Assembly (NCBI GenBank): GCA_020345725.1
Contig: CP070767.1
Location: 179,215 to 231,802 of the forward strand
Direction: 5' to 3'
DNA length: 52,588 nucleotides
Source: Methanobacteriota archaeon
GTDB lineage: Archaea; Thermoplasmatota; Thermoplasmata; RBG-16-68-12; SOIM01
The translations under genes were made by a program, and so were the position numbers. Shown here in pieces: positions 15,455 through 38,859 of the stretch (its first letter is position 1; every line of letters begins with the position of its first letter). The notes under the pieces were generated by a model. It had not been told where the DNA came from. It did no database searches and was given only the letters and a program-made list of their open reading frames with translations.

Positions 15455-15898
15455 TTATGCAACAACTTCCTCTCCTTCCCCCAGACTCTCCTTCTTTGTC
15501 TTCTTCCAATCTTCCCTTGACATCTCGAACAGTGGAGTTGTGAACCGCTCTTTCTTCTTGAACTCCCGTACGTATCTTTGACAATCAGGATAAGTGCACG
15601 GATCGCAGTGTTTCTCCTTGCAGGCAAGCTCCACGACAACATATCTTCGGTCCGCTTCGATTCGCCCCTTCTTCTCTACGGTGCGGAGCTCGAACATACT
15701 TGTAGTGAATGGCTTCTTCTTGCCCATCTCCCGCGTGAATCTCTGACAATCAGGATAGGTGCACGGATCGCAATGCCTCTCCTTGCAGGCGAGTTCCAGC
15801 AACATGTATCTTCGGTCAATCTCCTTGTCAGTTCCCTTCTGAGTTTTCCCAGGGTTCTTTGACTTGGGTTTCTTCTTTCTTTCTTTGCTCTTCGGCAT
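15455..15898 (-). CDS. Very basic, internally duplicated Cys-rich protein (147 aa); two copies of DRRYxxxELACKE(R/K)HCDPCTYPDCQR(F/Y)
   Basis: The ATG is 3 nt after the stop of the mvhD-hdrCB fusion. It has a 55-aa tandem repeat, each carrying C-x4-C-x2-C-x4-C plus a His, and Lys-rich termini. No family recognised. Confidence 0.75.
   Translation of the reverse strand: MPKSKERKKKPKSKNPGKTQKGTDKEIDRRYMLLELACKERHCDPCTYPDCQRFTREMGKKKPFTTSMFELRTVEKKGRIEADRRYVVVELACKEKHCDPCTYPDCQRYVREFKKKERFTTPLFEMSREDWKKTKKESLGEGEEVVA
15563..15817 (-). repeat. Intragenic direct repeat: two ~90-nt copies (15563-15652 and 15728-15817), period 165 nt
   Basis: Hand alignment shows a block nearly identical in both copies (GACAATCAGGATA(A/G)GTGCACGGATCGCA...CTCCTTGCAGGC...ATCTTCGGTC). 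It encodes the duplicated Cys motif. Confidence 0.85.
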
Positions 15899-15901
15899 CC
15901 C

Positions 15902-17551
15902 TCAATCCTCCAAAGCCTCTGCTACAGCAATCGTGAAATCCTTCAGGGGGATCTCCACCATTTCTCTTTCAACTGGGATCTCATCCCTGACTGAACAATC
16001 CAAATGAACGTAACACTTGGGACAAGCGGTAAGAACTGCGGCCGAATTGGTCTTCTTGGCTTCCACCATTCTTTCTATCTGCATCTTCTTAGCAGTTCCA
16101 TCACAGTTCATCCATGCACTCACTCCGCAGCATGCACCCTTGTCTCGAATTCTCTCCATCTCCACCAGGTTCATTCCATTGATCTTCGAAATTGCGTCCC
16201 TTGGGGCGTCATATATTCCACAATGCCTGGAAAGTCTGCAAGGTTCGTGATAAGTGACGTTCAAATCAAGCCCATCCTTGAATTTCAGCTTCCCAGCGTC
16301 CATCAGTTCACCTATGTACTGGGACATGTGGATCATCCGGAATTCCAAGTCCCCGGCCATTGCCTGATAGTCAATATTAAACGTCCTGAAACACTCCGCA
16401 CAGGTGTAGACAACAGTCTTGGCGCCGCTCTTCCGAATCAGGTCCAGATTGTGGTTCATCAGGTTCTCAACATTTGCCTCGTCGCCGGTCCAATTCAAGT
16501 CATGACCGCAACACTTCTCCCCATTGCTTACCACGGGTACGACCCCCGCCTTGTTCATGATCTTGACGGCGCTTCGGTTTATCTCACTAAGGTTCAATTC
16601 TCTGTCTTGGAAAATGATGTCCAGATGGGGCGTGCAGCCCGTGAAATAGAAGACTTCACCAGTGTCCGCGATTTGTAGGCTCTCATCCACCCAACCCAAC
16701 CTCTTCTGTTCGAAGTCTGTGTTTGCCATTATCCTCATGGTGGAATGCAGAAGCCCACCCTGTGAACAGACTGGAACAACCCCCAACATGGAAGCTTCGA
16801 CCCTCATACCTCTAATGAATTCAGCGTAGTCCACCTTGTATGGACACATAGCACTGCATTCAGCGCAGGTTGTGCAGGACCAGATGTCCTTCTCTCGTGC
16901 CAAATCGGTTGCAACTCCCTCTAGAGCTTTCACCACAATCAATCTGGGAGCGAACTTCTCATCGTTATTGGCTACTGAGCATACACTGGTGCATTTCCCG
17001 CATTCAACACAGTCAAAAGCTCCAGTGTCTTGTATGAGCTCTTTGATCATCACTGCACTACCGGCCTGCTCATCTGGAGGTTCTTTCTCTGTGAACTTCA
17101 GCGGATTCGGACCAAGTTCAGCAATCTGCTGATTGAATTCGTTCATGACTTCCGCGAACTTGGATCCCTCAGAGGCGGAAATCCATTCCAGTCGAAATCT
17201 ATCTGAGCCAACTCCCAGAATATCGAGGAGCTCTGAAACCATCTTTGCCCTCTTCTCCGCCTTCTCGTTTCCTGAGACATAGTGGCAGTCACCTATGTGG
17301 CAACCAGCCACAAGAACACCATCGACACCGCTCTCAAGAGCGTCAATAATGAACGAGGGCTCCACTCTGCCTGAACACATGACTCGAATGATCTTGATAT
17401 TTGGTGGATACTGCATTCTGGAAACGCCAGCCAGGTCCGCACCAGCATATGAACACCAATTGCAGCAGAAGGCAATTATGTTAGGCTCGAAGGGTGCGTC
17501 GGTGGCTGCTACCTGTTCCGTTTCTGCTTCCTGCATTTCTTCACCTCTCAT
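15902..17551 (-). CDS. MvhD-HdrC-HdrB triple fusion protein (549 aa)
   Basis: N-terminus: [31 protein letters not shown] (MvhD). Middle: CVECGKCTSVCS and CTTCAECSAMCP (HdrC-like 2x[4Fe-4S]). C-terminus: two CCG domains (FYFTGCTPH...KCCGHD and YHEPCRL...ACCGVSAW...CPKC). Confidence 0.88.
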   Translation of the reverse strand: MRGEEMQEAETEQVAATDAPFEPNIIAFCCNWCSYAGADLAGVSRMQYPPNIKIIRVMCSGRVEPSFIIDALESGVDGVLVAGCHIGDCHYVSGNEKAEKRAKMVSELLDILGVGSDRFRLEWISASEGSKFAEVMNEFNQQIAELGPNPLKFTEKEPPDEQAGSAVMIKELIQDTGAFDCVECGKCTSVCSVANNDEKFAPRLIVVKALEGVATDLAREKDIWSCTTCAECSAMCPYKVDYAEFIRGMRVEASMLGVVPVCSQGGLLHSTMRIMANTDFEQKRLGWVDESLQIADTGEVFYFTGCTPHLDIIFQDRELNLSEINRSAVKIMNKAGVVPVVSNGEKCCGHDLNWTGDEANVENLMNHNLDLIRKSGAKTVVYTCAECFRTFNIDYQAMAGDLEFRMIHMSQYIGELMDAGKLKFKDGLDLNVTYHEPCRLSRHCGIYDAPRDAISKINGMNLVEMERIRDKGACCGVSAWMNCDGTAKKMQIERMVEAKKTNSAAVLTACPKCYVHLDCSVRDEIPVEREMVEIPLKDFTIAVAEALED

Positions 17552-20646: not shown

Positions 20647-21651
20647 CTATTCAACCACCCCCGAAAGCAGTCCTCTTACACAGACCGAGAAGTGGCACAC
20701 GTTGCTTCTTCTCCTCTCGCAGTTGTAACATCTCAATGTAAGCAGCAGTTCCCTCACTATCCATTTCTTTGTCGCTTCATCTACGTCTGGAAGACTGGCA
20801 ATACTCATCTGGATGCTCTCCTTCTGAACCTTCGCCCATAGAGGTAAGGTGGAGATCTCCTGCCCCTCTTCTATCTGGGAAATATACAAAGGCGACGTGC
20901 CTTGGATTTCCGTCATCGTAACAAGTCCTCTATCGCGCAGTAGTACAATGTGCCTCAGAACATCCCTCTCCGGCAGATTAACCCTCTCGGATATCTCTTT
21001 CACAGATTGAGGCTGTCCTTTGGTTGCGAGAAGGACCCTGCATCTCCCATATTCCTCCAATATCGCCTTTTCCACGACTTCGTGGACCTTTCCGTTCGGA
21101 TTCATACGATTGAATGCATTGGGTTTGGTCTCAAGCAGGTGTTCCTTGTTCATCAACAGACTCAGTCTGAAATCGTCGACTGCACTGCGGGCCACATACA
21201 AACCTTCCATTATGTCGATGTCAGGAGCATCACCCGCAACAGGATTAGGTCCCAATTCGGTCACCGTGTTTACGAACTCCGTCACAATCTCTGCAAAAAG
21301 CTTGCCTTCTGAAGCGGACACCCATTCCATTCTCAATCTCTCTGGCTCAAGACCAGTGAGTTCTAGTAGTCTCCTTAGTGTGTCTATTCGCCTCGCTGCG
21401 TGATTGTTCCCCTCTTGATAATGACAATCTCCTGGATGACAACCGCAGATTAGCACTCCATCGGCACCTCTGAGGAAGCCTTCGATAACCACGGCTGGGT
21501 CGACACTACCACTGCACATTACTCTTATGATCCTCAAGTTAGGTGGATAGGTGAATCTGGAGACTCCGGCCAAATCGGCTCCTGCATAAGAGCACCAGTT
21601 GCAGAGGAATCCGACAATCTTGGGAGTGAAACCGTTGTCCTGCTTCTCCAT
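20647..21651 (-). CDS. mvhD: MvhD-domain protein with a winged-helix-like domain and an extra ~70-aa Cys-containing C-terminal extension (334 aa)
   Basis: [21 protein letters not shown] and CGCHPGDCHY. HTH-like SVKEISERVNLPERDVLRHIVLLRDRGLV. The extension, absent from the 257-aa paralogue, ends in CYNCERRRSNVCHFSVC. Confidence 0.8.
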   Translation of the reverse strand: MEKQDNGFTPKIVGFLCNWCSYAGADLAGVSRFTYPPNLRIIRVMCSGSVDPAVVIEGFLRGADGVLICGCHPGDCHYQEGNNHAARRIDTLRRLLELTGLEPERLRMEWVSASEGKLFAEIVTEFVNTVTELGPNPVAGDAPDIDIMEGLYVARSAVDDFRLSLLMNKEHLLETKPNAFNRMNPNGKVHEVVEKAILEEYGRCRVLLATKGQPQSVKEISERVNLPERDVLRHIVLLRDRGLVTMTEIQGTSPLYISQIEEGQEISTLPLWAKVQKESIQMSIASLPDVDEATKKWIVRELLLTLRCYNCERRRSNVCHFSVCVRGLLSGVVE

Positions 21652-24664: not shown

Positions 24665-24864
24665 ATTGCCAGACCTATAGGTACCTCAATCTCGTATCAG
24701 GACCTTTTCTTGTCTATATCACACAATCAGTATTTAGGTATTTGTGGATTTTGTTTTCCGAGAGAATTGTGGAAGAAAACGTCAGATTTTCGACGGATGA
24801 GACTCATAGCTCGACATTATGTGACGCAAATGTGCCATTATCGTTAATGATAGTGACTATTTCA

Positions 24865-24880
24865 GCGAAAAGCTTAAATC
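24865..24880 (+). promoter_or_regulatory. BRE/TATA-like element (GCGAAAAG CTTAAATC) upstream of the 30-aa mini-gene
   Basis: A purine-rich BRE-like stretch directly 5' of a TATA-like box. The centre is ~38 nt upstream of ATG 24915, which places the expected TSS just before the SD GGAGA (24905-24909). Confidence 0.45.
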
Positions 24881-24914
24881 GAAACGACCGAACTAGTAGT
24901 AATTGGAGATAAAA

Positions 24915-25007
24915 ATGACAGAATACGGCCCCAAAGACGAGTCCTCCTATGGGAGTTGCTTGGGTTGTGACGTTTGCAGCGGATCGAGTTGTCCATTAGA
25001 GAATTAG
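24915..25007 (+). CDS. Cys-rich mini-protein, 30 aa: MTEYGPKDESSYGSCLGCDVCSGSSCPLEN
   Basis: Not in the ORF track (<60 aa). It has an ATG preceded by GGAGA at a 5-nt spacing, its own BRE/TATA-like box and T-tract terminators downstream. Motif is C-x2-C-x2-C-x4-C-P. Confidence 0.5.
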   Translation: MTEYGPKDESSYGSCLGCDVCSGSSCPLEN

Positions 25008-25018
25008 TGTTCTCTCTC

Positions 25019-25037
25019 CGTTTTTCTCAGGTTTTCT
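25019..25037 (+). terminator. Two oligo-T tracts (CGTTTTTCTCAGGTTTTCT) after the mini-gene
   Basis: T5 and T4 runs lie 12-30 nt after the TAG, in the convergent spacer before the nadA-like stop at 25058. Confidence 0.4.
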
Positions 25038-25057
25038 GTGGCTATTTGGATTGCCGT

Positions 25058-26134
25058 CTAGAGCAGCGTGGTTAGCGCCGTTTTGGCTCTTTTGGAAATG
25101 TCTTCGGAAACAGAAAGTTTGACTGCAGGGATTCTGGTCCTTCCCTCACTGGTTGTCTGAAAATGCTCCTTCTGGTGTACGTCAATCTCGTAGTATGGCT
25201 CGTCCTTGTACGCGTATTTGATATCCGCAATTGGTCCGCCGGTCTCCAGTATCATCTTTGCCTTCTGAACCCTTGGTACGGTGGTATAGGACATGTTGGG
25301 GCATCTCATATTGATTGAGTAGATGGAAAGGTCCGTTTCTCTCTTTAGCCTGTCCACAACGCCCTCCACAGTGCCGACCAACCATGTTGTCTTGTCGGAT
25401 TCCTTGGGGGTCCGTACGAGTCCACCAGTTCCCCCGAAGTAAGCATTCTTCTCAAAACCGAACTTGCGCAGAGGAGTATCGACCTCCGCGTGCATCTCCA
25501 ATCCTAGATTCTCACCGTGAAGCTTCACCAGCTCATCGTACGTCTCCATGAAGAAATCTGCCGGAACGTTGACGTGACTTGGGCAGAAGACGTCATTCGT
25601 TGGTATAGATATGACTTCGAAATCCGGATATTTGGGCTGGAGAACGTCCCTCATCCAGTTGTTCACATTGACATCGCCGATAAACGCAACTCTGCCCTTT
25701 CCGTTTCTTTCTTTGGCTATTCTCTCAGCAACATTCAGGCCGACCGTGCCGTTGTACACTCCATCGCACTCAGCCTTGATTGAGGAAGGTGTATTGATGT
25801 AGGCCAGTGTCAAATCAGGGTTGAGCTTCCTCGCCTCTTCTACATGGTTCACTGCAACGATATCAGTGTCTCTCTGCTTCTTGATCATGGGGCAGCGAGG
25901 TTTGTCTATGACACCGTCCTTAACCGTGATCTCGGGTATGAAGACCTCCACTTCTCCATCAGCCATGTTGTACAGATCCTCGGCCATATAGAGGACCCCG
26001 CAGAATAGGACTTTCTTTCTCTTGAACCTGGGAGCGTTCCTGACAATCGCGGTTGTCCCATACACAAAATCTGAGATTTCCTGGGTTGGACCATCCTGAT
26101 AATTGTGAGAAATTACCACCAGAGGTTCCGCCAT
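25058..26134 (-). CDS. nadA: Quinolinate synthase (NadA)-like [4Fe-4S] protein, divergent (358 aa from ATG 26134; the ORF-track N-terminal 44 aa overlap the upstream gene)
   Basis: Collinear with archaeal NadA as I remember it: VVISHNYQ, ISDFVYG, VLFCGVLYMAEDL, three Cys in RCPM / VFCPSH / MRCPNM, GGTGGL, and a C-terminal ISKRAKTALTTLL. Contains insertions relative to ~300-aa NadA. Confidence 0.65.
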   Translation of the reverse strand: MAEPLVVISHNYQDGPTQEISDFVYGTTAIVRNAPRFKRKKVLFCGVLYMAEDLYNMADGEVEVFIPEITVKDGVIDKPRCPMIKKQRDTDIVAVNHVEEARKLNPDLTLAYINTPSSIKAECDGVYNGTVGLNVAERIAKERNGKGRVAFIGDVNVNNWMRDVLQPKYPDFEVISIPTNDVFCPSHVNVPADFFMETYDELVKLHGENLGLEMHAEVDTPLRKFGFEKNAYFGGTGGLVRTPKESDKTTWLVGTVEGVVDRLKRETDLSIYSINMRCPNMSYTTVPRVQKAKMILETGGPIADIKYAYKDEPYYEIDVHQKEHFQTTSEGRTRIPAVKLSVSEDISKRAKTALTTLL

Positions 26135-26145
26135 TACCTTGTCTC

Positions 26146-27000
26146 CTACTTCTTCTCCCCCAAGAGGTACTTCATCGCTCCTACCACATCGCCCACCTTT
26201 GCTCCCCAGGGAACCATCGCCATCTTTCCTTCCTTGTCGAATCCACCGGTCTGGAGCTCGCAGCATTTTATCAAAGTCGGGACTCCTGATTTCTTTGCGA
26301 TATTCTTTGGGCAGATGTCTATGAGTGGCAGCTCCTTCCCGCAGAGATCCTTTGCCACTCTTCTTGAGAGATCACAGCCAACGATTGTTGCATCTGCTAT
26401 CTTGGGATTCTTGTCGATGTAGAGACACTTCTTCTTCGGGACCTTGGCTCCTCCCGCTTCACAGCCGAAGAGGATTTCTTTTGTCTTTGCTTTCTTTGCG
26501 AGCATCCTCATGTCGACAATTTCCTCTTTGATTCTGACAGGAGTCTTGACTTCTTCAGTCTTCAAGGCCATTTCAACGAGAGATGTAAGTTTAGCAGGAA
26601 ATGGTGGAACAACATCAACGACCCTGATATCCTTGAATCGGAGTTTGTGAATGAACGAGACGTGCTCGAATAGTCCCTTTACAACCACGGTGTCCTTGCG
26701 AGATCTGGATGCCCTTCTTGCAAGCAATGGTATGCTCAGAACGTCTACTCCCGGGTCCTCAATGAATGCAGTATTCTTTGGCAGGGAGATTATCTTGATT
26801 GACAAGATCTTGCTGAACAGTGCCTTCGTTTCTTTCTTTCTCAGCTCAACCACTGCGAACTGCCTCTTGTTTTTCAACACGACGTACTTGGTTCTTCTAT
26901 ATGCTCTCTTGCCTTTCAGTTTCTTATTGATTTCCTTCGCATCCAGTTTGAAATCGACATCCCAAACTGACACATCTCGGCAATGTTCTGGAATTATCAT
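26146..27000 (-). CDS. Hypothetical basic protein (284 aa from ATG 27000) with a Cys-rich C-terminal third
   Basis: The ATG overlaps the stop of the radical SAM gene (ATGA at 26997-27000). The C-terminal region has FGCEAGG, KKCLY, VGCD, DLCGK, DICPK and KCCELQTGG. No family recognised. Confidence 0.6.
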   Translation of the reverse strand: MIIPEHCRDVSVWDVDFKLDAKEINKKLKGKRAYRRTKYVVLKNKRQFAVVELRKKETKALFSKILSIKIISLPKNTAFIEDPGVDVLSIPLLARRASRSRKDTVVVKGLFEHVSFIHKLRFKDIRVVDVVPPFPAKLTSLVEMALKTEEVKTPVRIKEEIVDMRMLAKKAKTKEILFGCEAGGAKVPKKKCLYIDKNPKIADATIVGCDLSRRVAKDLCGKELPLIDICPKNIAKKSGVPTLIKCCELQTGGFDKEGKMAMVPWGAKVGDVVGAMKYLLGEKK

Positions 27001-28013
27001 TGACTCACCAACGGACACAGTGGATCGGTCGCGCAAAGATCTCCAGTATTCTCGTAAGCGGACGCTCTACAGCCTCCTCCACAGTAGACTAGATATTTAC
27101 AATTCATGCAAGTGTCTGAAAGACGGTCTATTGACCTCATCTTATCCAAGAATGCGTTGTCATTCCAAATATCCGCGAATTTCTGCTCACGGAGATTCCC
27201 TAGCTTCACAGAGAAGTATCCACACGGCTTCACCCACCCATCTGGGGTTATTGCACAGAGTTGCTTTCCGCAGACACATCTGGATCCAACGAAGGATTTG
27301 TCAGCCTTGTTTTCTGGTAGGTCTTTTCCAAGGAAATGGAAACTGGGAGTTATCAGCTGAAATGGAATGGTCAGGTTTCTTCTCTTCTCTTCTATGTATG
27401 AGAAAGCTTCTCTCATTGCTTCCGGATCGGGAATGTACTTCTCGTTCTCGCTGCCCCTGCCTACACTGACAAACGGTCTTACGCGAAAAGCATCCACTCC
27501 GAGACCAGTCACGAAGTCGATTATATCTGGAACTTCCTTGTGATTCTGCTGTGTTATTGTGAGTCTGACTGCCGTCTTGATGCCTTCTCCCTCCGCGGCC
27601 TTGATAGCCCTTATCGCCCGTTCGAATGCTCCCTTCATCCCCCTGAAGGCGTCATGAGTCTCTCCAAGTCCGTCTATGCTGACCTGTATCTCTGATACAC
27701 CTCTTTCCTTGAGTTTGGATGCTAACTCCTCGTCAAGCAGGATCCCATTTGTGAACACCCTGTATCTTATTGAATTCTCATTCAAGAATGATCCCAGCTC
27801 CAGAACTAAGTCCTTCCTGCAGAGCGGTTCTCCACCAGTCATTGTGAGAAGCTTCATTCCGTTCTCCTTCAAATCCAGAACCATGCTCTTCGCTTCTTCC
27901 ACGCTGAGCTCATCAGGTAGCGGTTGTCGTGCCTTCGCAAAACAATGGGGGCAGCTGAGGTTGCATGCCAGTGTTACCTGGTAGCGAACGTCTCGGATGG
28001 ACCACATATCCAT
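26997..28013 (-). CDS. Radical SAM enzyme with a C-terminal SPASM-type auxiliary-cluster domain (338 aa)
   Basis: Canonical CNLSCPHC (CX3CX2C) at residues 17-24, GGEPL, and a C-terminal Cys cluster CVCGKQLC...KPCGY...CMNCKYLVYCGGGCRASAY typical of SPASM/twitch maturases (anSME/PqqE/AhbD-like). Confidence 0.85.
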   Translation of the reverse strand: MDMWSIRDVRYQVTLACNLSCPHCFAKARQPLPDELSVEEAKSMVLDLKENGMKLLTMTGGEPLCRKDLVLELGSFLNENSIRYRVFTNGILLDEELASKLKERGVSEIQVSIDGLGETHDAFRGMKGAFERAIRAIKAAEGEGIKTAVRLTITQQNHKEVPDIIDFVTGLGVDAFRVRPFVSVGRGSENEKYIPDPEAMREAFSYIEEKRRNLTIPFQLITPSFHFLGKDLPENKADKSFVGSRCVCGKQLCAITPDGWVKPCGYFSVKLGNLREQKFADIWNDNAFLDKMRSIDRLSDTCMNCKYLVYCGGGCRASAYENTGDLCATDPLCPLVSQ

Positions 28014-28106: not shown

Positions 28107-28610
28107 CTATTTTGCCCAGGGGCAGTTCTGTTTGTTGGGGCAGTCCTTACATTCATAGTACTTGTGGAAGAGAGGGAGTATCACAAAACCCACAATAACA
28201 AAGGACAGCGTCAAGGCCAGGAAGAACCATGAAAAATCGGTGAACAGCAAGAAGAGGCTGCCCAACAGGGGATAGATCCACACTAAGGATAGGAACGGAA
28301 TATATGTCTTGAACATCCTCTGGAACTGGGAGATATCTCTCCTTTTGAAGAGTTTGGAGGCAATCGTTCCATATCCAGAAGGACAGCGTCCGCCTCCATA
28401 CGAAGGACAGTAGGTACAGACATACCTGAGAAACAGGACAAGAGCCAGGACTATGAACGACAGGTAGAGAATACCGAAGAGAATCCCCACATATGATAGT
28501 ATTATGAATCCAAGAACGTAGGTGGTCAGACTCGGGATGTTGGCAATGACTGTTTCTTTTACTGTGGACCTTACCGCATGGTGTCCTATTGAAAATGCAT
28601 ACTTCCCCAT
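28107..28610 (-). CDS. Integral membrane protein (167 aa, ~4 TM) with two Cys-rich loops
   Basis: Hydrophobic segments (LTTYVLGFIILSYVGILFGILYLSFIVLALVLFL, FLSLVWIYPLLGSLFLLF, FFLALTLSFVIVGFVILPLF). Cys loops: CTYCPSYGGGRCPSGYG and a C-terminal YECKDCPNKQNCPW. Preferred over the overlapping alternative-frame ORF 28153-28620. Confidence 0.6.
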   Translation of the reverse strand: MGKYAFSIGHHAVRSTVKETVIANIPSLTTYVLGFIILSYVGILFGILYLSFIVLALVLFLRYVCTYCPSYGGGRCPSGYGTIASKLFKRRDISQFQRMFKTYIPFLSLVWIYPLLGSLFLLFTDFSWFFLALTLSFVIVGFVILPLFHKYYECKDCPNKQNCPWAK

Positions 28611-28672: not shown

Positions 28673-31600
28673 CTACTCCGGTTCTTGTTCCTTCTTCTTC
28701 CTCATCAATAGCAGGAGTGCTATCACTACAATTATGATGATGATTGCTGCTGCCAGAATGGGGATAATGGGTAGACCCGAAGGCTGTTCTGCCCTCTCAG
28801 TGATGTCTATCTCCCAGTCAGTATCTGGACGTCTGCCAATGTTATCCAGCGTATCGTTCGCCTCTATGTAGTACCAAACCCCATCAGTTGTAGCATCAGA
28901 GCCTGGAATTGTCGCTGTGAATGTATCTGAAGCGGACGGGGTCATTGCAATCCGAATATACGAACCAGCTTGTGATCTCTTGTAGAATAAGGAAGCTGTG
29001 CTTACCCCATTGCTGTCTGTTATGGTGGCTTCCACAGGTATGTCTTCACCAGCGGTTCCAGACGAGATAGCCTGATGATTTATCGTCGGAGGCGTGCTGT
29101 CGATTTCAAATGACCATACTGTTACATTGACATTCGAGGGCGAGGAAATGTCCTCAACTGTAAGTCGGACGTTGTGCGAGCCATCTGGCAGGGATGCTGA
29201 CAGAGTAAATGTCACTTGGTCCGCTGTGATCACCGCGGAACCTGTGACGTCAATTCCATCCACTTCGATGACGATGCTAGACAAGTCAACACCAGAAGCG
29301 TCTTCATAACCCGCACGTATGGTAGGTGTGTTGTCACTTGTTAATGAGTTGTTGGTGGGTTGGAGGGATGTGATGTTGGGAGCCAGTGTATCCACTATGA
29401 ACCACCAAGTTGCCGATGACATTATGCTCATAGGTGAATTGTCCCTGACCTCCAGGTATGCATTGTGTACCCCTTCTGTCAGTGGTGTTGCTGGCGTATA
29501 CGATATCTGTGAAGATGTGACAGTTGCAGATGATGTGAAGTCGATCCCATCAATCATAAGGATTACTCCTGCTGTGTCTATTCCAGACTCGTCGCTGTAG
29601 TTGGCGCCTATGACAGGCAGATTGTCACTTATGATGGACTGATTCAACGGTTGCATATCCATAATCTCAGGTGCCACTGGATTGACCAAGAACCACCATG
29701 TTACCGTTGCCCTGTTTTGCGGTGCAGACTGATCGCCAACCTCCAATCGGACATCATGCCGCCCTTCGGAAAGCGTAGATGCTGGCATATATGAAACGTA
29801 GTTCGGTGTCACCGTTGCCAGAGGTGTGACATCTATGAGATCAACGAATATTGTGACATCGGTTACGTTAATCCCAGAATCATCACTGTAGCTAGTTCTA
29901 ATAACTGGGGTGGAGTCCAATATTGTCGATTCATTTGCAGGCTGCTGTATCGTGATCAAGGGGGGAGTGGTGTCCACCAGGAACCACCAAGTCTTCGAAG
30001 CCACATTGTGATTCGCGGAATCGTCCTGAACTTCTAGATATGCATCGTGGAGACCTTCCGTCAAGGGTACGAGTGGTGTGTAAATAATGTCCAGCGGTGT
30101 TATTGTTGCCAGAGACGTTACGTCTATAGAATCTACTTCCAGAACCACAGTGGTAATATCTATCCCGGATGAATCCGCGTAGTCGGCTCTTATCACGGGG
30201 CTGGCGTCGCCTATGATAGATTCGTTGATTGGCTGCATGTTTGTGATTGATGGCGGTATCGTATCTACAATCGTTGTGTCAACATTGAACCACCATGTCT
30301 TTACTGCCGTGTTCATGGGTGTGGAGCTGTCATTGACTTGCAGAGAAACATTGTGCCTGCCGTTTGGCAATGGGACGACAGGCGTATACATCACTCCGGT
30401 AGGTGTGATTGTGGAACTGGCAGTCACATCTACTGTGTCCAACTTCAACATCACTGAGCCTGTATCTATCCCTGAAGGATCACTGTAGCTGGCGCTTATG
30501 GTTGGCGTGTCATCTCCGACTGTAGATCCATTGTTTGGCAGTAAGTTGGTAATGTCTGGTGGTTGTGTATCTACAGTGAACTGCCACGTGACCACCGCCT
30601 TGTTCTGGTTGATGGAATCGTCCCTGACCTCCAGATAAACGTCATGGATGCCATCAGAAAGAGGAAGAGCTGGTATGTAGGTCACATTGGAATCAGTAAC
30701 AATGGCCGAAGGTGTCCCATCAATACCATCAACCATTAGAAGAACGCTGGTGGTGTTGATGCCGGAAACATCGCTGTAGTTGGCGCCTATGATTGGCATG
30801 GCGTTTCCGATTACCGATTGGTTTATGGGCAGTAACCCAGAAATGACTGGTGGCGTTGTCTCCACAGGGGGGATTGTGAATGAGTTGTTGCTCTTATCCC
30901 AGTTGGTGCGAAGTGCAGAATCTGTTACGTTAACCCTGACATAGCAGTCAGAAGAGGGAGTGTTTGGAACCGTCCAAAGAAAGGTTCCGTCATTCGATTC
31001 CCCATCAGCGATTTGTGAATACTGTCCAGTTATTCCATCTATCGAATATTCGATTCGAATGGTTAGAGGAGCAGTTCCACCTGAGGCAGTCCAATTGATT
31101 GCGTGTTGAGTGCCGACCTTCCAGATCTCACCAGCATTGGGATCTTCCACCTCAACCTTCAATGGAGGAGATGTCTCATCGTTTATCCATACCTGAACAC
31201 CAAAACCCTCTCCAGCAGCGCCAATGTCCATGTATCCATCATCGTTAATATCACCTGCAGCCACACCTATGACCTTACCCACAGGCAGTGTTGCAGATGC
31301 ATCAGTCCAGGTGGACCCTCCGTCACCTTTCCATATCCTGATGCCATTTCCCCCGTAGCCAGCCGCCAATATGTCAGGGTATTTGTCCCCAACTAGGTCA
31401 GCCAGAATCACTCCATAGTACAGATCGTTAGTAGGTAGACCATTAGAGGCAAGAGTCCAATTGCTCGTGCCATCTCCCAGCCATGCCTTGATCCCGTGAC
31501 CGCCCATGTCCATCGAGGAGACAATGTCCAGGTTGCCGTCGAGATCGATGTCTCCCATGGTCACTCCGTTCCATTGATCGGTCCAGGGCAGTCCATTAGA

Positions 31601-32335
31601 CGCCTCTGTCCATATGCCTGTCCCGTCTCCAAGCCAAACATGAAGACCAGCACCTGCGGCAGCAAGATCGGTATTATTGTCATTGTTAACATCATCCATC
31701 CACACACTGAAGTAACTTCCACTTGTTGGAAGGTTTGTCGAGGCTTGCGTCCAGACACCTGCTCCGTTCCCAGTGAAAACCTTCACACCACCAAACACAT
31801 CATTCCCAACTGCAAGATCCAAGTTGTCATCATTGTTTATGTCAGCAAGGAATAGGCCTGTATTCCAAACCTCTCCAGGCAAGCCTGTGGAGGCAGGAGT
31901 CCAGGAACCTGCGCCATTGCCGGTCCAAACACCGACAGTGCCAGGACCATAGTCATAATTGGAGGCTGCAAGGTCCAGATCTCCATCGTTGTTGATATCA
32001 CCCAGACTCACGCCAGCATCGAAGGTCGTGCTTGGAAGGCCAGTGGAGGCAGGGGACCAGTTACCCGCTCCATCCCCAGTCCATACACGTACTCCTGAGT
32101 AGCCTGCTGTAGCAATGTCCAAGTTGCTGTCATTATTGATGTCACCGAACCAAATGCTATGCTGACTTGAGGCTCCTGGCAAACCAGCTGAAGCGGATAC
32201 AAAGCCAGTCCCTATCGGGTCCTCTTCTGAATGAGCTTGAACATCCATGGAAGTGAGCAAGTTCCCAAACGATGCCCCAATTAGAACCGCGGTCAAGGCG
32301 AGTGGGAACCAGCGAGTTGTTGACTTGAATTTCAA
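28673..32335 (-). CDS. Large surface protein (1220 aa, TTG start): signal peptide, FG-GAP/VCBS-type (integrin-alpha-like) beta-propeller repeats, six Ig-like repeats, C-terminal TM anchor
   Basis: N-terminal hydrophobic signal. About 7 repeats of GDINNDxxLDL...VWxGxGxGxW (aa ~60-385). Six ~97-aa repeats (aa 494-1081). C-terminus LPIIPILAAAIIIIIVVIALLLLMRKKKEQEPE. Confidence 0.8.
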   Translation of the reverse strand: MKFKSTTRWFPLALTAVLIGASFGNLLTSMDVQAHSEEDPIGTGFVSASAGLPGASSQHSIWFGDINNDSNLDIATAGYSGVRVWTGDGAGNWSPASTGLPSTTFDAGVSLGDINNDGDLDLAASNYDYGPGTVGVWTGNGAGSWTPASTGLPGEVWNTGLFLADINNDDNLDLAVGNDVFGGVKVFTGNGAGVWTQASTNLPTSGSYFSVWMDDVNNDNNTDLAAAGAGLHVWLGDGTGIWTEASNGLPWTDQWNGVTMGDIDLDGNLDIVSSMDMGGHGIKAWLGDGTSNWTLASNGLPTNDLYYGVILADLVGDKYPDILAAGYGGNGIRIWKGDGGSTWTDASATLPVGKVIGVAAGDINDDGYMDIGAAGEGFGVQVWINDETSPPLKVEVEDPNAGEIWKVGTQHAINWTASGGTAPLTIRIEYSIDGITGQYSQIADGESNDGTFLWTVPNTPSSDCYVRVNVTDSALRTNWDKSNNSFTIPPVETTPPVISGLLPINQSVIGNAMPIIGANYSDVSGINTTSVLLMVDGIDGTPSAIVTDSNVTYIPALPLSDGIHDVYLEVRDDSINQNKAVVTWQFTVDTQPPDITNLLPNNGSTVGDDTPTISASYSDPSGIDTGSVMLKLDTVDVTASSTITPTGVMYTPVVPLPNGRHNVSLQVNDSSTPMNTAVKTWWFNVDTTIVDTIPPSITNMQPINESIIGDASPVIRADYADSSGIDITTVVLEVDSIDVTSLATITPLDIIYTPLVPLTEGLHDAYLEVQDDSANHNVASKTWWFLVDTTPPLITIQQPANESTILDSTPVIRTSYSDDSGINVTDVTIFVDLIDVTPLATVTPNYVSYMPASTLSEGRHDVRLEVGDQSAPQNRATVTWWFLVNPVAPEIMDMQPLNQSIISDNLPVIGANYSDESGIDTAGVILMIDGIDFTSSATVTSSQISYTPATPLTEGVHNAYLEVRDNSPMSIMSSATWWFIVDTLAPNITSLQPTNNSLTSDNTPTIRAGYEDASGVDLSSIVIEVDGIDVTGSAVITADQVTFTLSASLPDGSHNVRLTVEDISSPSNVNVTVWSFEIDSTPPTINHQAISSGTAGEDIPVEATITDSNGVSTASLFYKRSQAGSYIRIAMTPSASDTFTATIPGSDATTDGVWYYIEANDTLDNIGRRPDTDWEIDITERAEQPSGLPIIPILAAAIIIIIVVIALLLLMRKKKEQEPE
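29093..30856 (-). repeat. Six tandem coding repeats (~291-306 nt each) of an Ig-like domain
   Basis: Consensus PPxITNxxPxNxSxIxDxxPxIxAxYSDxSGIDxxxVxLxVDxIDVTxxATxTxxxxxYTPxxPLxEGxHxxYLEVxDxSxxxNxAxxTWWFxVDT. Copies are diverged at the DNA level. Confidence 0.85.
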
Positions 32336-32348
32336 ACGAACACCGTGA

Positions 32349-35300
32349 TTATTTTCGAGCAGCTATTGCGATCGGACTATCACACTCTGGACATATTGTG
32401 TCATTCATTCCGAGTTCATGTCCACAATTCTCGCAAGTATCAGGGGCCTCTGCACCGGCAGGTGTTTCCTCTCTCTTTCTTCTCTTGAGTGCAAGGAAGA
32501 GTAGAAGTATCAAGAATACGGCCGCCACAAGGATTGCCAGTATCCACCAGGGGAAAGCACCCACTTCCTGCGCGCTCGCCGTAACCCTGACCGTCATTGT
32601 GTCTGTGCCGGTATTTCCAGCCATGTCCTTGATCGTGAGAGTGACTTCGTACTCGCCAACTTCTCCGAACCTGAACTGGCCAGAACAGTCAGGGATTTCG
32701 AACTCCTCATTGAGATATGGGAAAGTCCAACTGCAATTATTGGGGTCTATTCCGCTTCCATCGATTCCGTCGTCCGAACCGCTGGAGTCAAATACCACAA
32801 TGTGCCCGACACTAATCTCAACGTCATCACCAGCATCGGCATTGGGGGACTGTGTGTCCAGAAAGACAGTGATATATCCGATAGTTCCCACATTACCAAC
32901 CCTGTCGATGCTCCCGAAGTATATCCTATGCTCTCCTTCAGTCATCGTTCCCGCGACGAGTGGACCCGAATAGGTTGATGTGCAGGCAGTGTCGTCTATT
33001 CCGTAACAAATGGAAGATACTCCAGATCCTTCACCATCGTCTGCAGTTATTGAGATCGTTGCCAGAGCGGTGTTGATGTAGTTTGTTTCTGTGCTATCAT
33101 ATCCTGGTATTACGCTCGTGGGTGCAGTGTTGTCCAGGTACAATATCTCGGTAACCTCGATCTCCTCCGTGCCCAACTCATCAGTGCTCTTGAAAAGGAC
33201 TTCTCTCTCCCCGTCATCTCCAGACAATTGGAGAGGTACACTGAACGCGGTCCAGTCTTCTATTACCACTCCGTCCTTCTTGATCTGATACCAAGTGGTT
33301 CCAGCTCCACTACCAGCTCCATCTTCAACTGTGAAGCTGATTGGCGTCATCGAGCTAACGTATGTAATGCTTGGAGCAGTGTGGTTTGGCTCACCAGTCA
33401 CCATTTGTGTGGTAGGGGCGGTGTTATCCAAATATACCTGGAATGTTCTCTCGCTTTCCTCGTTGTTGACATTGTCCTTGCTCTTGACGATAACATCCCA
33501 CAAACCGTCCTCACCCGTGAGGTAGATAGCTCCACCGGTGTAATGAGTCCAGTCAACTTCTATGATTCCGTCCTTCTTGATTTGGTATTGGGTGGAACTC
33601 TCTCCGCTTCCCAATCCATCATCAGCTGCGAAATAAATCGGGGTCTGGGAAGTGAGATAGGTAGTTCCAGAAGCATTGTGGTGTGGCGCACCTACACTCA
33701 TGTCGGATACAGGTGGGCTATTGTCCAAGTAGATATGTTCTGTCTTTGCAAGTTCCTCGTTGCCAAGTGTATCCCTGGCTTTGAATTTGACATATATCAA
33801 TCCGTCACTCTTGGAGCTCGAGATCGCAAAATTGCCTGTGTACGGGCTATATAGCGGCTCAGACTCTCCAAAGGCGTAGTAGAGATACTCGATGGATTCC
33901 ACTCCAACACCCGAATCGTCACTCGATGTCAGGTTGAGCGGTGTAAGCGAAGTTACATATGTGTTGGTACTGATTGGATCCGTGTACTGTGGGAACAAGA
34001 TGTTGAGTGAAGTGGTTGGAGCAGTTGTATCGATAGCGAAGGACCATGTGGCAGTAGATACGAGCGAATTGGTGTCAGCAACGGAGATGTAGACTTCATG
34101 GTCGCCATCATTCAAGGGTATTGCTGGTGTGAATTGAATGTCTCCTGAGGTCTTTATCGACATCGAGGTGACGTTCATTGAATCCACCTCCAGCACAACG
34201 CTTCCAAGATCAATCCCAGAAGTGTCAGCATAATCTGCCCCAATTGTTGGCTGGTTGCTGTTTATGATTGAGAGATGATCTGGCTGCAGGTTTGATATTA
34301 TCGGAGGTTGTGTGTCAACTATGAACCACCACGTCTCCACTGCTGTGTTTTTGGGGTTGGAATTGTCGCTTACCTGAAGATACACATCATGTACTCCATC
34401 AAGAAGTGGAACAAGGGGAACATAGGATACATCACCTGAAGTCACAGTAGCACTTGAAGTCACATCGATTGAATCCACCTTCAGGATCACACTTCCAGTG
34501 TCGATCCCTGACACATCGAAATAGAATGCGCTGATGGCGGGAGTCGTTTCAGTTGTAGAAGATTCATTTGCAGGCTGCGGGTTCATGATTGCAGGGGGTA
34601 ACGTGTCCACCACGAACCACCACGTTGCAGAGGCCTTGTTCTGATTGGAGGAATCGTCCATTACTTCCAGATACACGTCATGCGTGCCTTCCGTCAGTGG
34701 AATCAAAGGTGTATACGAGATGCCTGTGGCTGTTATTGTGGCATCGGCAGTGACGTCTACGCTGTCCACTTCCATCCGAACACTGCTGGTGTCGACTCCA
34801 GATTCATCCCAATATTCGGCACTGATAACCGGCACGTTTTCGCCTATGGTCGATTGGTTGGTGGGCAACGTGTTGTTGATCAGCGGTGGGGTGTAGTCAA
34901 TAGTCACTCCCGTTATGTCAACCATATCAATCCAATGAGTTATTGGCCCTGTAATGTGGTTGTAGAATCCCATCGCTACGTAGATCTCTCCCGTAGGTCC
35001 CGACGTGAACGTGTTCAGGTAACTGTACTCATACCATCCCACAGTCTGCCCGCTCATTCCGATCACAGTGAAGTCCGGATAGTCCTCAGGATCTGTCGTT
35101 CCCGCATACGCCAGTACTTCAAGAGGCGACCCAGTTGATTCGCTGTACAACTGGAAATTCACGCCAATGTCCAATGAGGTGCTTGCAGGAGCCTGGACAA
35201 TTCTCTCAATCCATACTGAAAGCTGCGGATAAGGTGGCGTGGGAAGCCCATGACAGAACAATTCAACTGAATAGGATCCGTCAAAAGCATATAAACTGGA

Positions 35301-35489
35301 TATCGCGACGTTGAAATATGCCGGGTCATAGTTGAAATCACCAACCCAATCGCCAAAACCGCCTTCAAAACTCTCGGATATCTGTGCCGAGCTGATCATC
35401 GAACCGTGCTGAAGCACTGTCAGTAGAACCAAGACACCAAGAACTGCAGAGGCTCTCCTCCGTGTTTGTACGCCCTTTCTTGTCATCAT
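32349..35489 (-). CDS. Large surface protein (1046 aa): signal peptide, N-terminal domain, three copies of the same Ig-like repeat, four copies of a second Ig-like repeat, PKD-like domain, TM helix, cytoplasmic zinc-ribbon tail
   Basis: Signal MMTRKGVQTRRRASAVLGVLVLLTVL. TM FPWWILAILVAAVFLILLLFLAL followed by KRRKREE. Tail CENCGHELGMNDTICPEC (CX2C-X10-CX2C). Located 13 nt upstream of the 1220-aa gene. Confidence 0.8.
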   Translation of the reverse strand: MMTRKGVQTRRRASAVLGVLVLLTVLQHGSMISSAQISESFEGGFGDWVGDFNYDPAYFNVAISSLYAFDGSYSVELFCHGLPTPPYPQLSVWIERIVQAPASTSLDIGVNFQLYSESTGSPLEVLAYAGTTDPEDYPDFTVIGMSGQTVGWYEYSYLNTFTSGPTGEIYVAMGFYNHITGPITHWIDMVDITGVTIDYTPPLINNTLPTNQSTIGENVPVISAEYWDESGVDTSSVRMEVDSVDVTADATITATGISYTPLIPLTEGTHDVYLEVMDDSSNQNKASATWWFVVDTLPPAIMNPQPANESSTTETTPAISAFYFDVSGIDTGSVILKVDSIDVTSSATVTSGDVSYVPLVPLLDGVHDVYLQVSDNSNPKNTAVETWWFIVDTQPPIISNLQPDHLSIINSNQPTIGADYADTSGIDLGSVVLEVDSMNVTSMSIKTSGDIQFTPAIPLNDGDHEVYISVADTNSLVSTATWSFAIDTTAPTTSLNILFPQYTDPISTNTYVTSLTPLNLTSSDDSGVGVESIEYLYYAFGESEPLYSPYTGNFAISSSKSDGLIYVKFKARDTLGNEELAKTEHIYLDNSPPVSDMSVGAPHHNASGTTYLTSQTPIYFAADDGLGSGESSTQYQIKKDGIIEVDWTHYTGGAIYLTGEDGLWDVIVKSKDNVNNEESERTFQVYLDNTAPTTQMVTGEPNHTAPSITYVSSMTPISFTVEDGAGSGAGTTWYQIKKDGVVIEDWTAFSVPLQLSGDDGEREVLFKSTDELGTEEIEVTEILYLDNTAPTSVIPGYDSTETNYINTALATISITADDGEGSGVSSICYGIDDTACTSTYSGPLVAGTMTEGEHRIYFGSIDRVGNVGTIGYITVFLDTQSPNADAGDDVEISVGHIVVFDSSGSDDGIDGSGIDPNNCSWTFPYLNEEFEIPDCSGQFRFGEVGEYEVTLTIKDMAGNTGTDTMTVRVTASAQEVGAFPWWILAILVAAVFLILLLFLALKRRKREETPAGAEAPDTCENCGHELGMNDTICPECDSPIAIAARK
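32850..34022 (-). repeat. Four tandem coding repeats (~97 aa) of a second Ig-like domain type
   Basis: aa 490-880. Recurrent pattern TYxTSxTPIxFxAxDGxGSGxxxxxYQIKKDG...W..Y.......EDG...V..KS.DxxxNEE......YLDNTAP. Confidence 0.7.
34023..34892 (-). repeat. Three tandem coding repeats of the same ~97-aa Ig-like domain found in the 1220-aa protein
   Basis: aa 200-489: ...YTPLIPLTEGTHDVYLEVMDDSSNQNKASATWWFVVDT..., matching the consensus of 29093-30856. Confidence 0.8.
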
Positions 35490-35697: not shown

Positions 35698-36768
35698 ATG
35701 AGTGCCAGGTTGAAGAACCGCATACTCTGTCGGGGTGTCAGGGTCCCTGATGAGCTCAAGACTGGTAGGAAGAGCGGAGCAGGTCCTGCCGGCGGAAGAT
35801 ACCTGGAAGTTAACAATAGCGTTGTGAATGCCCCCATTTATGGCTTTTCGGAAAACTCACCAATATCACTTGAATTCTTTGACGGACGCTACTCTCTCGG
35901 GGACAATGGTGACACATGTCCCACCAATCTCATCGAAGAACCGTCATTCTACACCGGAAACACCTCGGACGGAATCCCGATGAAGAAGATAGCGCTTCAG
36001 CATGGAGTGAACTGTCTCGCCACAACCGTTTGTCAGAGATGTCTGTACTGGAGAACCGGAGAAGAGTGTTATTTCTGCGGCATAGAGCTCTCTCTGAAGC
36101 ACGACACCACAATTCCATCAAAGAGTCCAAGGCAACTGGCGGAAGTCGGTGCTTTGGCGGAAAAGGAAGGTTTCAATCACTGCACTCTCACAACCGGCAC
36201 ATCAAATCTGAGGGACAGAGGAGCAGAGCTCCTGGCGAAATCGGCGGAAGCGCTCAGAGATAACACTGGTATGAAAATCCATGTCCAGCTGGAGCCTGTT
36301 GATGGGGAATGGATATCGCTTCTGAAGGAAAGCGGAGCGGATACGATCGGAGTACACATCGAATCCCTGGATGCTCGAGTTTTTGGGACCAAATGTCCTG
36401 GAAAAGCCCATCAATGGGAGAAGTATTGGGAGACTTGGCACGACGCATTAGAAGTATTCGGAGATAATCAGGTCAGCTCGTACGTTATTCTCGGGCTGGG
36501 AGAAGAGGAAGAACCTTCAAAGAAGGGCATAGAGAGAATGTGCCAGTCTGGAATAATCCCTTATCTCGTGCCACTCAGACCTATCAATGGAACGAAACTG
36601 GAGAACGCTCTCCCACCAACTCCTGAGATAATGATGGAATACTACCTGTACGCCATTGATTGCATGAAGACCTATGGTGTCAACCCAACAAAGAATCTAG
36701 CTGGTTGCGTGAGATGCGGAGCCTGCTCTGCTTTGGTAGATTTCTATGAGGAATCTCATGCTTTCTGA
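35698..36768 (+). CDS. Radical-SAM-like TIM-barrel protein with a non-canonical Cys cluster (356 aa); possibly MSMEG_0568-family
   Basis: SD GGGGAGGA precedes the ATG. Cys cluster CLATTVCQRCLYWRTGEECYFC (C-x5-C-x2-C-x8-C-x2-C, nt 36013-36078). BioB/HydE-like downstream blocks (GADTIGVHIESLD, VILGLGEEEE). The subfamily call rests on gene context only. Confidence 0.6.
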   Translation: MSARLKNRILCRGVRVPDELKTGRKSGAGPAGGRYLEVNNSVVNAPIYGFSENSPISLEFFDGRYSLGDNGDTCPTNLIEEPSFYTGNTSDGIPMKKIALQHGVNCLATTVCQRCLYWRTGEECYFCGIELSLKHDTTIPSKSPRQLAEVGALAEKEGFNHCTLTTGTSNLRDRGAELLAKSAEALRDNTGMKIHVQLEPVDGEWISLLKESGADTIGVHIESLDARVFGTKCPGKAHQWEKYWETWHDALEVFGDNQVSSYVILGLGEEEEPSKKGIERMCQSGIIPYLVPLRPINGTKLENALPPTPEIMMEYYLYAIDCMKTYGVNPTKNLAGCVRCGACSALVDFYEESHAF

Positions 36769-37717: not shown

Positions 37718-37720
37718 TTC

Positions 37721-38200: not shown

Positions 38201-38397
38201 ATCTCCAAATACATCTTGACGATACTTCCAATGACCAGTTTATCCTTGAGATCTTCCTGGACACGGAGCTCTACCTTCTCACCCCTCAAATCTTGAAGAG
38301 TAACTCTGAACATCTCCGGTTCTGGTTCTATCTCTTTGACCTCAAATGCGTTCACAAATTCCGTCATCTTATCCCTATTGGACAATGGGTGTAGCAT
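38197..38397 (-). CDS. Small hypothetical protein (66 aa)
   Basis: ATG ORF co-directional with the osmC-like gene upstream. Its 3' end overlaps the GNAT stop by 4 nt (convergent). No motif recognised. Confidence 0.35.
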   Translation of the reverse strand: MLHPLSNRDKMTEFVNAFEVKEIEPEPEMFRVTLQDLRGEKVELRVQEDLKDKLVIGSIVKMYLEI

Positions 38398-38419
38398 AAA
38401 ATAGATTTCTCAGAAGAAG

Positions 38420-38845: not shown

Positions 38846-38859
38846 ACTTCACCATCCAT

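Follow-up and report, generated by a model that had tools for sequence, protein, structure and literature searches.

A short archaeal gene beside a radical SAM/SPASM operon encodes a conserved peptide with a ferredoxin-type cysteine motif

Natural ferredoxins of ~30 residues that carry a single cluster motif, termed semidoxins, are known, and one of them, protodoxin-1 (PD1) of Thermoanaerobacter (KLKNGIAYIDPKKCRDCGRCIDICPVGAIS), binds a [4Fe-4S] cluster (-438 mV) and exists partly as a monomer and partly as a dimer (PMC12648291). Here we analyze a 30-codon cysteine-rich gene (the mini-gene, its product being the mini-protein) located in a 52,588-nt stretch of the genome of a Methanobacteriota archaeon of the Thermoplasmatota (contig CP070767.1, positions 179,215 to 231,802; this whole stretch is called the window), where it adjoins three genes coding for a radical S-adenosylmethionine enzyme with a SPASM domain (rSAM/SPASM), a DUF7714 protein of the XcbA family and a NadA-like protein. 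The mini-protein shares with the semidoxins its size, a single motif of the CX2CX2CX3CP type (exact in part of its orthologues), a stand-alone gene and an origin in strict anaerobes, and like them it is rare and mostly overlooked. However, in PD1 and the designed semidoxins ~7 residues precede the first Cys and 5-9 come behind the CP dipeptide (PMC12648291), whereas the mini-protein ends 3 residues after CP and lacks the hydrophobic strands that flank the motif, and therefore it cannot form the beta-alpha-beta half-fold. It further differs from the semidoxins in being archaeal (Thermoplasmata/Methanomassiliicoccales), in having a fixed partner operon and, in the clade of the window, in a last spacer of 4 residues, and no homology between them is detectable beyond the motif. 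Of the known kinds of protein, these natural mini-ferredoxins come closest to the mini-protein, which is set apart by its shorter length, its archaeal origin and its link to a defined operon.

Other described systems share individual traits with this locus. In the synthetic [4Fe-4S] maquettes a CX2CX2C heptapeptide plus a fourth nearby Cys suffices for the assembly of a cubane cluster, and these 16-residue peptides have the size of the conserved core of the mini-protein, although they are designed molecules and not a natural selected product; the mini-protein resembles such minimal synthetic cluster-binding peptides rather than the semidoxin fold. The heterodisulfide reductase (Hdr) subunit HdrC, the partner of HdrB, is a protein of ~160-200 aa with two CX2CX2CX3CP motifs. 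One motif of this type is present in the mini-protein, whose CL(E/Q)C resembles the first HdrC motif, and in other lineages the place behind the NadA-like gene is taken by HdrC-like genes; HdrC (COG1150), in contrast, has 160-200 aa, two motifs and a helical domain, compared with 29-40 aa and one motif in the mini-protein, and genuine HdrC genes exist elsewhere in the window (3750-4283 and within 15902-17551). Precursors of the SCIFF type have a Cys-rich C-terminal core, and the mini-protein, like the precursors of the SCIFF, ranthipeptide and sactipeptide systems, is small and Cys-rich towards its C-terminus, its gene lying no more than 2 kb from an rSAM/SPASM gene. Unlike those precursors, it matches no precursor model, is encoded convergently, has a variable 'leader' and an invariant core, and adjoins an operon that also exists without the peptide. 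Finally, archaeal thiol-forming sulfurtransferases such as L-ASST have a small ferredoxin partner (MA1822 for L-ASST), and MMP16 carries a ferredoxin domain (bioRxiv 10.1101/2025.02.10.637553). We propose a functional analogy with MA1822 and L-ASST and with the ferredoxin domain of MMP16/ComF, in which a small Fe-S electron supplier is encoded beside a thiol-making enzyme, but MA1822 and MMP16 have full di-cluster ferredoxin domains (plus a NIL domain in MA1822) and their partners are COG1900 proteins rather than rSAM, XcbA-family or NadA-like enzymes.

The mini-gene and its signals were located in the window as follows:

24915-25007, plus strand: open reading frame (ORF) of the mini-gene from ATG 24915 to TAG 25007, 30 codons plus TAG, with the product MTEYGPKDESSYGSCLGCDVCSGSSCPLEN by direct translation.
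24865-24880, plus strand: factor B recognition element (BRE) and TATA box of the mini-gene, GCGAAAAG at 24865-24872 and CTTAAATC at 24873-24880.
24905-24909, plus strand: Shine-Dalgarno-like GGAGA, 5 nt before the ATG of the mini-gene, read directly.
24957-24995, plus strand: invariant core of the mini-protein, C-x2-C-x-V-C-x-G-x2-C-P, from the alignment of the orthologues.
25022-25036 (within 25019-25040), plus strand: two oligo-T tracts (T5 and T4) 3' of the stop codon, read directly.

The original prediction, which had been made by reading the sequence of the window, had proposed a free-standing gene with these promoter, ribosome-binding and oligo-T signals, and all of them are present where it had placed them. 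The four Cys residues, at positions 15, 18, 21 and 26 and followed by Pro27, form a CX2CX2CX4CP motif, as also anticipated by the description of a ferredoxin motif with one extra residue. The gene occupies, on the plus strand, a 393-nt gap between the start of an hdrA-like gene (24664, minus strand), which is a 1003-aa double HdrA-like gene, and the stop codon of the NadA-like gene (25058, minus strand); the stop codons of the NadA-like gene and the mini-gene are convergent and 50 nt apart. Transcription is expected to start at about 24903, and the oligo-T tracts after the stop codon are likely to act as an archaeal terminator. When the window was simulated 200 times with a first-order Markov model, none of the 200 runs contained a small ORF with a Met start and the motif C..C..C.{3,4}CP, and the motif in any context came up 0.015 times per run on average; therefore the motif in the mini-gene is not due to chance. 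The 14 other copies of this motif in the window are all inside ORFs of >200 codons, mostly Hdr-type Fe-S genes.

Eleven distinct orthologous sequences (29-40 aa) were found in 14 related loci of Methanomassiliicoccales/Thermoplasmata assemblies, that of the window not being counted. A scan of one genome per species, with the NadA-like protein as query, yielded four loci from metagenome-assembled genomes of Methanomassiliicoccales/Thermoplasmata, and in each of them an orthologous ORF lies in the corresponding position and converges on the NadA-like gene. Further copies came from a metagenome scan (L007), from contigs encoding the database protein P0001 (L005, L006) and from contigs of NadA-like homologues (L023, L024, L029-L031), so that the orthologues are located in L001-L007, L023, L024 and L029-L031, with P0057 and P0058 as two extra cluster members. 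Besides the start Met, the residues that are invariant in the alignment are the four Cys and a single Val, Gly and Pro. The frame of the mini-gene is the sole frame without stops in 9 of the 9 orthologues tested and stays open despite an amino acid divergence of 40-60%, and the differences in length between orthologues are whole codons. The dN/dS values among the window, L001 and L024 were 0.16, 0.21 and 0.10, and at the seven invariant residues of the core (C, C, V, C, G, C, P) none of the 14 first and second codon positions varies, compared with 6 of the 7 third positions (Fisher p = 1.3e-4). Hence, it is the protein that is conserved, with synonymous third-position changes, and not merely the nucleotide sequence.

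The regulatory signals are conserved as well. The most conserved intergenic block in the five close loci (window, L001, L024, L002 and L023) is AGCGAAAnn(C/T)TTAAATC, whose position fits a leader of ~12 nt containing GGAGA/GAGGA. In L001, L024, L002 and L023 a GGAGA or GAGGA is kept in place, and T4-T7 tracts lie ~10-25 nt past the stop codon of the mini-gene. In a second clade, the promoter GGGCAAA(A/G)(C/A)TATATAAGG is located ~27 nt before the ATG, which suggests a near-leaderless mRNA, as expected for archaeal mRNA. The true start in this clade is probably the methionine of MDP..., giving 38 aa: in L029 the first ATG is replaced by CTG, and the form predicted by IMG is the one of 38 aa. 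A scan for sigma-70 promoters and intrinsic terminators revealed nothing above chance in the window, but such a scan is irrelevant for an archaeon. Between the divergent promoters of hdrA and the mini-gene (24777-24830), an inverted repeat CGTC-N8-GACG, whose spacer varies between loci, and repeated TCGAC(A/G) boxes ~18 nt apart were observed, both conserved in five loci; these are candidate regulator sites, e.g. for the fusion of MvhD to an ArsR-type helix-turn-helix (HTH) domain encoded at 20647-21651.

Could the ORF be a chance frame in conserved non-coding DNA, for instance in the region of a terminator or promoter or in an antisense RNA? It is indeed of very small size, most annotations omit it, and only one cluster of 38/40-aa forms appears among ~15 billion predicted proteins. 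Nevertheless, the frame is open in all the orthologues with indels in threes, the substitutions are biased towards synonymous ones, the start codon, Shine-Dalgarno sequence and promoter are conserved, and there is no RNA-structure signal, all of which makes this explanation very unlikely. Neither strand of the mini-gene region folds better than shuffled controls (z ~ +1 on both strands), and Rfam gave no match over the whole window; a structured RNA or riboswitch was rejected for the lack of both an Rfam match and a folding signal. A Cys-sensing leader peptide acting by attenuation was also rejected, since nothing lies downstream on the strand of the mini-gene and such a role would not call for the invariant V, G and P. 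The mini-gene is a real gene, under purifying selection and with its own conserved archaeal promoter, and the earlier claim that it was absent from the annotation holds, orthologues being missing or mislabelled.

The genes on the opposite strand beyond the mini-gene form an operon:

26997-28013, minus strand: rSAM/SPASM enzyme, first gene of the operon; Pfam Radical_SAM plus SPASM.
26146-27036, minus strand: DUF7714/XcbA-family protein; Pfam DUF7714 219.6 bits, NCBIfam CoM_XcbA_fam 228.6 against a cut-off of 150.
25058-26134, minus strand: NadA-like (quinolinate-synthase-fold) Fe-S protein, last gene of the operon; Pfam NadA 90.6 bits.

The original prediction had pointed to this rSAM gene on the opposite strand with two genes between, and these two proved to be the DUF7714 and NadA-like genes. 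The rSAM/SPASM, DUF7714 and NadA-like genes constitute a conserved three-gene unit in many loci, and wherever the mini-gene is present it is convergent to this unit and 5-60 nt away from the stop codon of the NadA-like gene. All the loci in which a mini-gene was found encode a NadA-like protein with at least 60% identity to that of the window, and they fall into three sub-groups; one NadA-like protein with this degree of identity, P0022 (60%; L025/L026), has no adjoining mini-gene. All the copies (window plus 14 loci) have an rSAM gene within ~2 kb or lie on a contig too short to reach it (L007). On the other flank, hdrA is the divergent neighbour of the mini-gene in five loci (window, L001, L002, L023, L024) and also in L003 and L004, where it lies at the end of the contig. 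In L029-L031, hdrA is absent from that position and a hydrogenase small-subunit gene plus a large-subunit fragment are there instead, but the mini-gene is still 5 nt from the stop codon of the NadA-like gene and has its own TATA box. Because the linkage is kept in L029-L031 without hdrA, the mini-gene is linked to the operon and not to hdrA.

Orthologous rSAM-DUF7714-NadA-like operons, with an rSAM 47-57% identical, also occur without the peptide in the surrounding DNA: no Cys-rich small ORF was detected within 1.5 kb of the operon in the seven distant loci checked (L009, L010, L018, L019, L021, L025 and L027), and no small ORF with the Cys motif in L008-L011, L016, L018-L022 and L025-L028 (up to 6-8 kb on each side where the contig allows). 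Among 55 NadA-like homologues, none carries a fused Cys-motif extension. The earlier proposal of a tie between the peptide and the rSAM/SPASM enzyme is supported as a linkage to its operon that survives the change of the other flank. In four of these peptide-less loci (L010, L013, L021 and L022) an HdrC-like 2x[4Fe-4S] gene directly follows the NadA-like gene on the same strand, and in L010, L021 and L022 HdrB-like and HdrA/MvhD-like genes come next where the contig continues. In L018 a 101-aa ferredoxin gene is located ~1.2 kb from the operon, and PAPS-reductase-like, DsrE/TusA/ThiF and ferredoxin genes appear in other operon contexts.

Concerning the enzymes themselves, the rSAM protein obtains its highest NCBIfam scores with AhbD at 235 bits and NirJ2 at 215 bits, neither of which reaches the cut-off of 500, compared with 160 bits or less for peptide-maturase models (GeoRSP 160, StsB 140, ACGX 140, PqqE 133). 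Its best match in the Protein Data Bank (PDB) is SkfB (E = 1e-32), with an alignment that begins at SkfB residue 112, beyond the N-terminal domain of SkfB; the radical SAM domain of the operon enzyme begins at residue 12 and its SPASM domain extends close to the C-terminus. XcbA, a thioaldehyde reductase with a [2Fe-2S] cluster, converts sulfoethanethioaldehyde to coenzyme M in the bacterial synthesis of this cofactor in Xanthobacter (PMC9457059). The NadA-like protein scores far below the NCBIfam NadA equivalog cut-offs (87 vs 294) and matches NadA structures of the PDB only at E = 6e-15; four Cys are invariant in 39 homologues, and these proteins form a small distinct subfamily of 55 clusters. 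The idea that archaeal ComF/MMP16 is NadA-like was rejected, since it is a COG1900 protein. The NadA-like gene most likely starts at 26134, and not at 26266 as in the listed ORF 25058-26266, because all the homologues start with M(A)EP..ISHNYQ (MAEP... in the window), and the start of the DUF7714 gene is probably ATG 27000, which overlaps the stop codon of the rSAM gene as ATGA; mechanical ORF calls over-extend both genes. The neighbours of the operon point to a probable role in sulfur or thiol chemistry. In the lineage in which the operon runs straight into HdrC-, HdrB- and HdrA/MvhD-like genes on the same strand, this arrangement suggests an undescribed Hdr-coupled sulfur/thiol pathway.

What could such a peptide do beside these enzymes? 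The only conserved feature of the mini-gene product is a ferredoxin-type Cys motif at its extreme C-terminus; the N-terminal part differs wholly between clades in length and sequence, whereas the Cys core is invariant. The exact CX2CX2CX3CP is present in the forms of L003-L007 and L029-L031, and in the window clade one residue is inserted in the last spacer of the core (SGSS, 4 residues, compared with 3 in the deeper clade). The L003 and L004 peptides reach 22.6 and 22.5 bits with Pfam Fer4_17, whose gathering score is 22.2, and peptides of this deeper clade show weaker matches to Fer4_8/9/10 and weak NCBIfam matches to ferredoxin segments; those of the window, L001 and L002 gave no match to the Fer4 clan, or 13.5 bits. 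The best PDB profile matches of the mini-protein are ferredoxin and PsaC, at non-significant scores. Two further traits agree with the Fer4 consensus: CP is always followed by a hydrophobic residue (L, I or M), and a Gly is located near the second and third Cys. In addition, the slot after the NadA-like gene points to electron transfer because an HdrC-like gene fills it in the four loci mentioned above.

These observations lead us to favour, tentatively and with a probability that we put a little below even, a minimal [4Fe-4S]-binding ferredoxin-motif peptide that would feed electrons to, or dock on, the Fe-S enzymes of the operon; its metal binding, its electron transfer and its partners are what we infer from the sequences. 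The four Cys would bind a low-potential [4Fe-4S] cluster, with either one cluster per monomer or two clusters across a homodimer, as in half-ferredoxins. The holo-peptide might then be a small carrier dedicated to bringing electrons to the Fe-S enzymes of the adjacent operon, or a subunit that docks on them. An rSAM/SPASM enzyme requires a one-electron reductant and would be a taker of these electrons, the XcbA-family and NadA-like proteins being further Fe-S proteins that could receive them, and the surrounding Hdr/Mvh machinery would be a plausible source. Of the two readings offered by the original prediction, the 'mini metal-binding peptide' is the one favoured by the evidence, and the precursor of a ribosomally synthesized and post-translationally modified peptide (RiPP) is less favoured.

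Several observations weigh against this reading. In the peptide of the window, the last spacer of 4 residues departs from the classical motif, and neither Pfam nor NCBIfam gave a match even at E<=10. The mini-protein stops 3 residues after CP and is hydrophilic in its N-terminal half, and it therefore lacks the flanks that form the beta-alpha-beta fold in ferredoxin halves. AlphaFold2 yielded no structure or secondary structure for the mini-protein (predicted local distance difference test score of 52.8), a result that is expected when a peptide needs a metal centre in order to fold, although it proves nothing. The similarity to HdrC is confined to 19 motif columns (hhalign probability 53%). 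Moreover, the closest solved relatives of the operon rSAM are the peptide maturases SkfB, PqqE, SuiB and CteB, and the strict linkage to an rSAM/SPASM operon fits a RiPP precursor equally well.

According to the RiPP explanation, which we regard as rather unlikely, the mini-protein would be the precursor of a peptide or cofactor whose Cys-rich C-terminal core is modified by the rSAM/SPASM enzyme, possibly with the XcbA-like and NadA-like proteins, and possible products are thioether cross-links of the ranthipeptide/SCIFF or sactipeptide type or an excised small thiol compound. The peptide is seen only beside the rSAM/SPASM operon, in three sub-clades and despite the change of the other flank, and its Cys-rich core behind a hydrophilic N-terminus resembles SCIFF-type precursors. 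The nearest solved rSAM structures being peptide maturases (SkfB at E = 1e-32, PqqE, SuiB, CteB) also speaks for it, as do peptide-associated rSAM families that equal the enzyme in length, likewise have no N-terminal recognition domain and match it from end to end (GeoRSP 160 bits, ACGX 140 bits). However, the enzyme favours the AhbD/NirJ models, i.e. small-molecule enzymes (235/215 bits), over any peptide maturase, no NCBIfam precursor model matched any of five orthologues at E<=10, with only weak matches to ferredoxin segments, and no PqqD/RiPP recognition element (RRE), peptidase or (ATP-binding cassette) exporter was found among the neighbours whose families were looked up, which is not decisive since GeoRSP/ACGX-type maturases are also RRE-less. 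The orthologous operons without a Cys-rich small ORF (within 1.5 kb in seven loci, and in the wider Cys-motif scans) and the HdrC-like gene in the same slot of four peptide-less loci argue in the same direction. In most RiPP families the leader is conserved and the core variable, whereas here the N-terminal 'leader' is variable and the Cys core is invariant and resembles a metal motif; the mini-gene is, furthermore, convergent to the operon and not co-directional upstream of it.

Two other explanations retain the peptide as a final product and appear improbable to us. In one of them, a structural micro-protein with Zn or another metal, or a small regulatory subunit, without a redox role, would bind an enzyme of the operon or modulate its expression, e.g. 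by convergent-transcription interference at the 3' end of the NadA-like mRNA. Four Cys within 12-13 residues are able to bind Zn, the convergent stop codons are so close (5-50 nt) that the 3' ends of the transcripts must overlap or abut, and AlphaFold2 predicts no autonomous fold. Nevertheless, Zn knuckles or ribbons normally have two separated CX2C pairs and not CX2CX2CX3CP; in agreement with this, the two separated knuckles of the rubredoxin/zinc-ribbon class are absent from the mini-protein (spacing 2-2-3/4 in 12-13 residues) and no Pfam family of that class matched it. The purifying selection on the amino acids, in turn, indicates that the product matters and not the act of transcription alone. 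The remaining explanation, which we consider slightly weaker still, is a thiol/disulfide or sulfur-carrier micro-protein whose C-terminal Cys would cycle between dithiol and (poly)sulfide/disulfide states; it might be a substrate of the Hdr-like (CCG-domain) and XcbA-like enzymes or shuttle sulfur for them, much as DsrK uses the cysteine arm at the C-terminus of DsrC. A neighbourhood full of Hdr-type genes (several HdrA-like, HdrB, HdrC, an HdrBC fusion and MvhD) fits such a carrier, as do the XcbA family, which reduces a thio-compound, and the DsrE/TusA/ThiF and PAPS-reductase-like genes of other operon contexts, but the CX2CX2CX3CP spacing and the invariant Pro signal cluster ligation rather than known sulfur-carrier arms, the peptide is kept where hdrA is not adjacent, and there is no homology to DsrC or TusA.

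Returning to the ferredoxin-type peptide, a far-reaching version of it may be put forward as a conjecture that we hold to be unlikely: the mini-protein could be a natural 'proto-ferredoxin', a selected product of 29-40 residues whose functional part is a cluster loop of ~13 residues, smaller and simpler than the half-ferredoxin fold, that would act as the dedicated electron donor of an undescribed rSAM/XcbA-like/NadA-like pathway in Thermoplasmata, possibly for the synthesis of a thiol cofactor and wired to Hdr/Mvh electron bifurcation, or else the three enzymes would convert this ribosomal peptide into a new thiol product.

The mini-protein family is essentially absent from the protein databases. 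By exact look-up, a collection of ~15 billion predicted proteins holds it only as the 38/40-aa forms of one near-identical cluster. A word-indexed protein search with the 40-aa form as lead query returned P0001 as the sole match, and an exhaustive HMMER search of 1.84 billion representatives with the peptide of the window plus P0001 returned P0001 and one spurious 256-aa low-complexity protein; the contig index contained no exact match to the mini-protein or to the rSAM protein of the window. The 38-aa orthologue P0057 (JGI/IMG) is labelled 'heterodisulfide reductase subunit C' (HdrC), which is an over-annotation because the similarity is confined to one 19-column Cys motif, and this label could spread. 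These data illustrate that annotation overlooks genes of this size, since of 11 orthologous sequences only the 38/40-aa forms of one cluster are present in that collection, one of them misnamed. If a cluster is bound, the mini-protein would be among the smallest natural Fe-S proteins, and, unlike the bacterial semidoxins, it has a defined partner in the genome, through which the role of a minimal peptide of the ferredoxin type can be tested directly. The locus also draws attention to a conserved rSAM/SPASM, XcbA-family and NadA-like module of Methanomassiliicoccales-related archaea that is probably related to sulfur or thiol chemistry and that in some lineages is joined with HdrCBA into one gene string.

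The wider neighbourhood of the window showed some additional features. An unusually large Hdr/Mvh island (2897-24664) contains genes for HdrB, HdrC and the small and large subunits of a NiFe-hydrogenase, at least five HdrA-like genes, three of which are fusions of 1003-1022 aa, and genes for MvhD, an MvhD-HTH fusion and an MvhD-HdrC-HdrB fusion (549 aa). Within this Hdr gene string, a 147-aa protein without a Pfam family (15455-15898, minus strand) consists of two copies of a ~50-residue unit, each with C-x4-C-x2-C-x4-C (ELACKE+HCDPCTYPDCQR). A predicted membrane protein of 167 aa encoded immediately upstream of the rSAM gene (28107-28610, minus strand), with the Cys-rich motifs CTYCPSYGGGRCPSGYG and YYECKDCPNKQNCPW and without a Pfam or NCBIfam match, is conserved in L001 (83%) and L002 (59%), and is outside the operon in other clades. 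Genes for an MSMEG_0568-family radical SAM protein, an AIR-synthase-like protein and a GT4 glycosyltransferase are located at 35698-39996 of the window and at 2424-6744 of L029, and, because these three genes lie near the operon in both, the wider neighbourhood is syntenic even though L029 lacks the HdrA block. Finally, two repeat-rich surface proteins of 1220 and 1046 aa with C-terminal membrane anchors are encoded at 28673-35489 on the minus strand; their homologues carry FG-GAP, Big_13 and PKD-type repeats, and the pair flanks the operon and is syntenic in L023 and L024.

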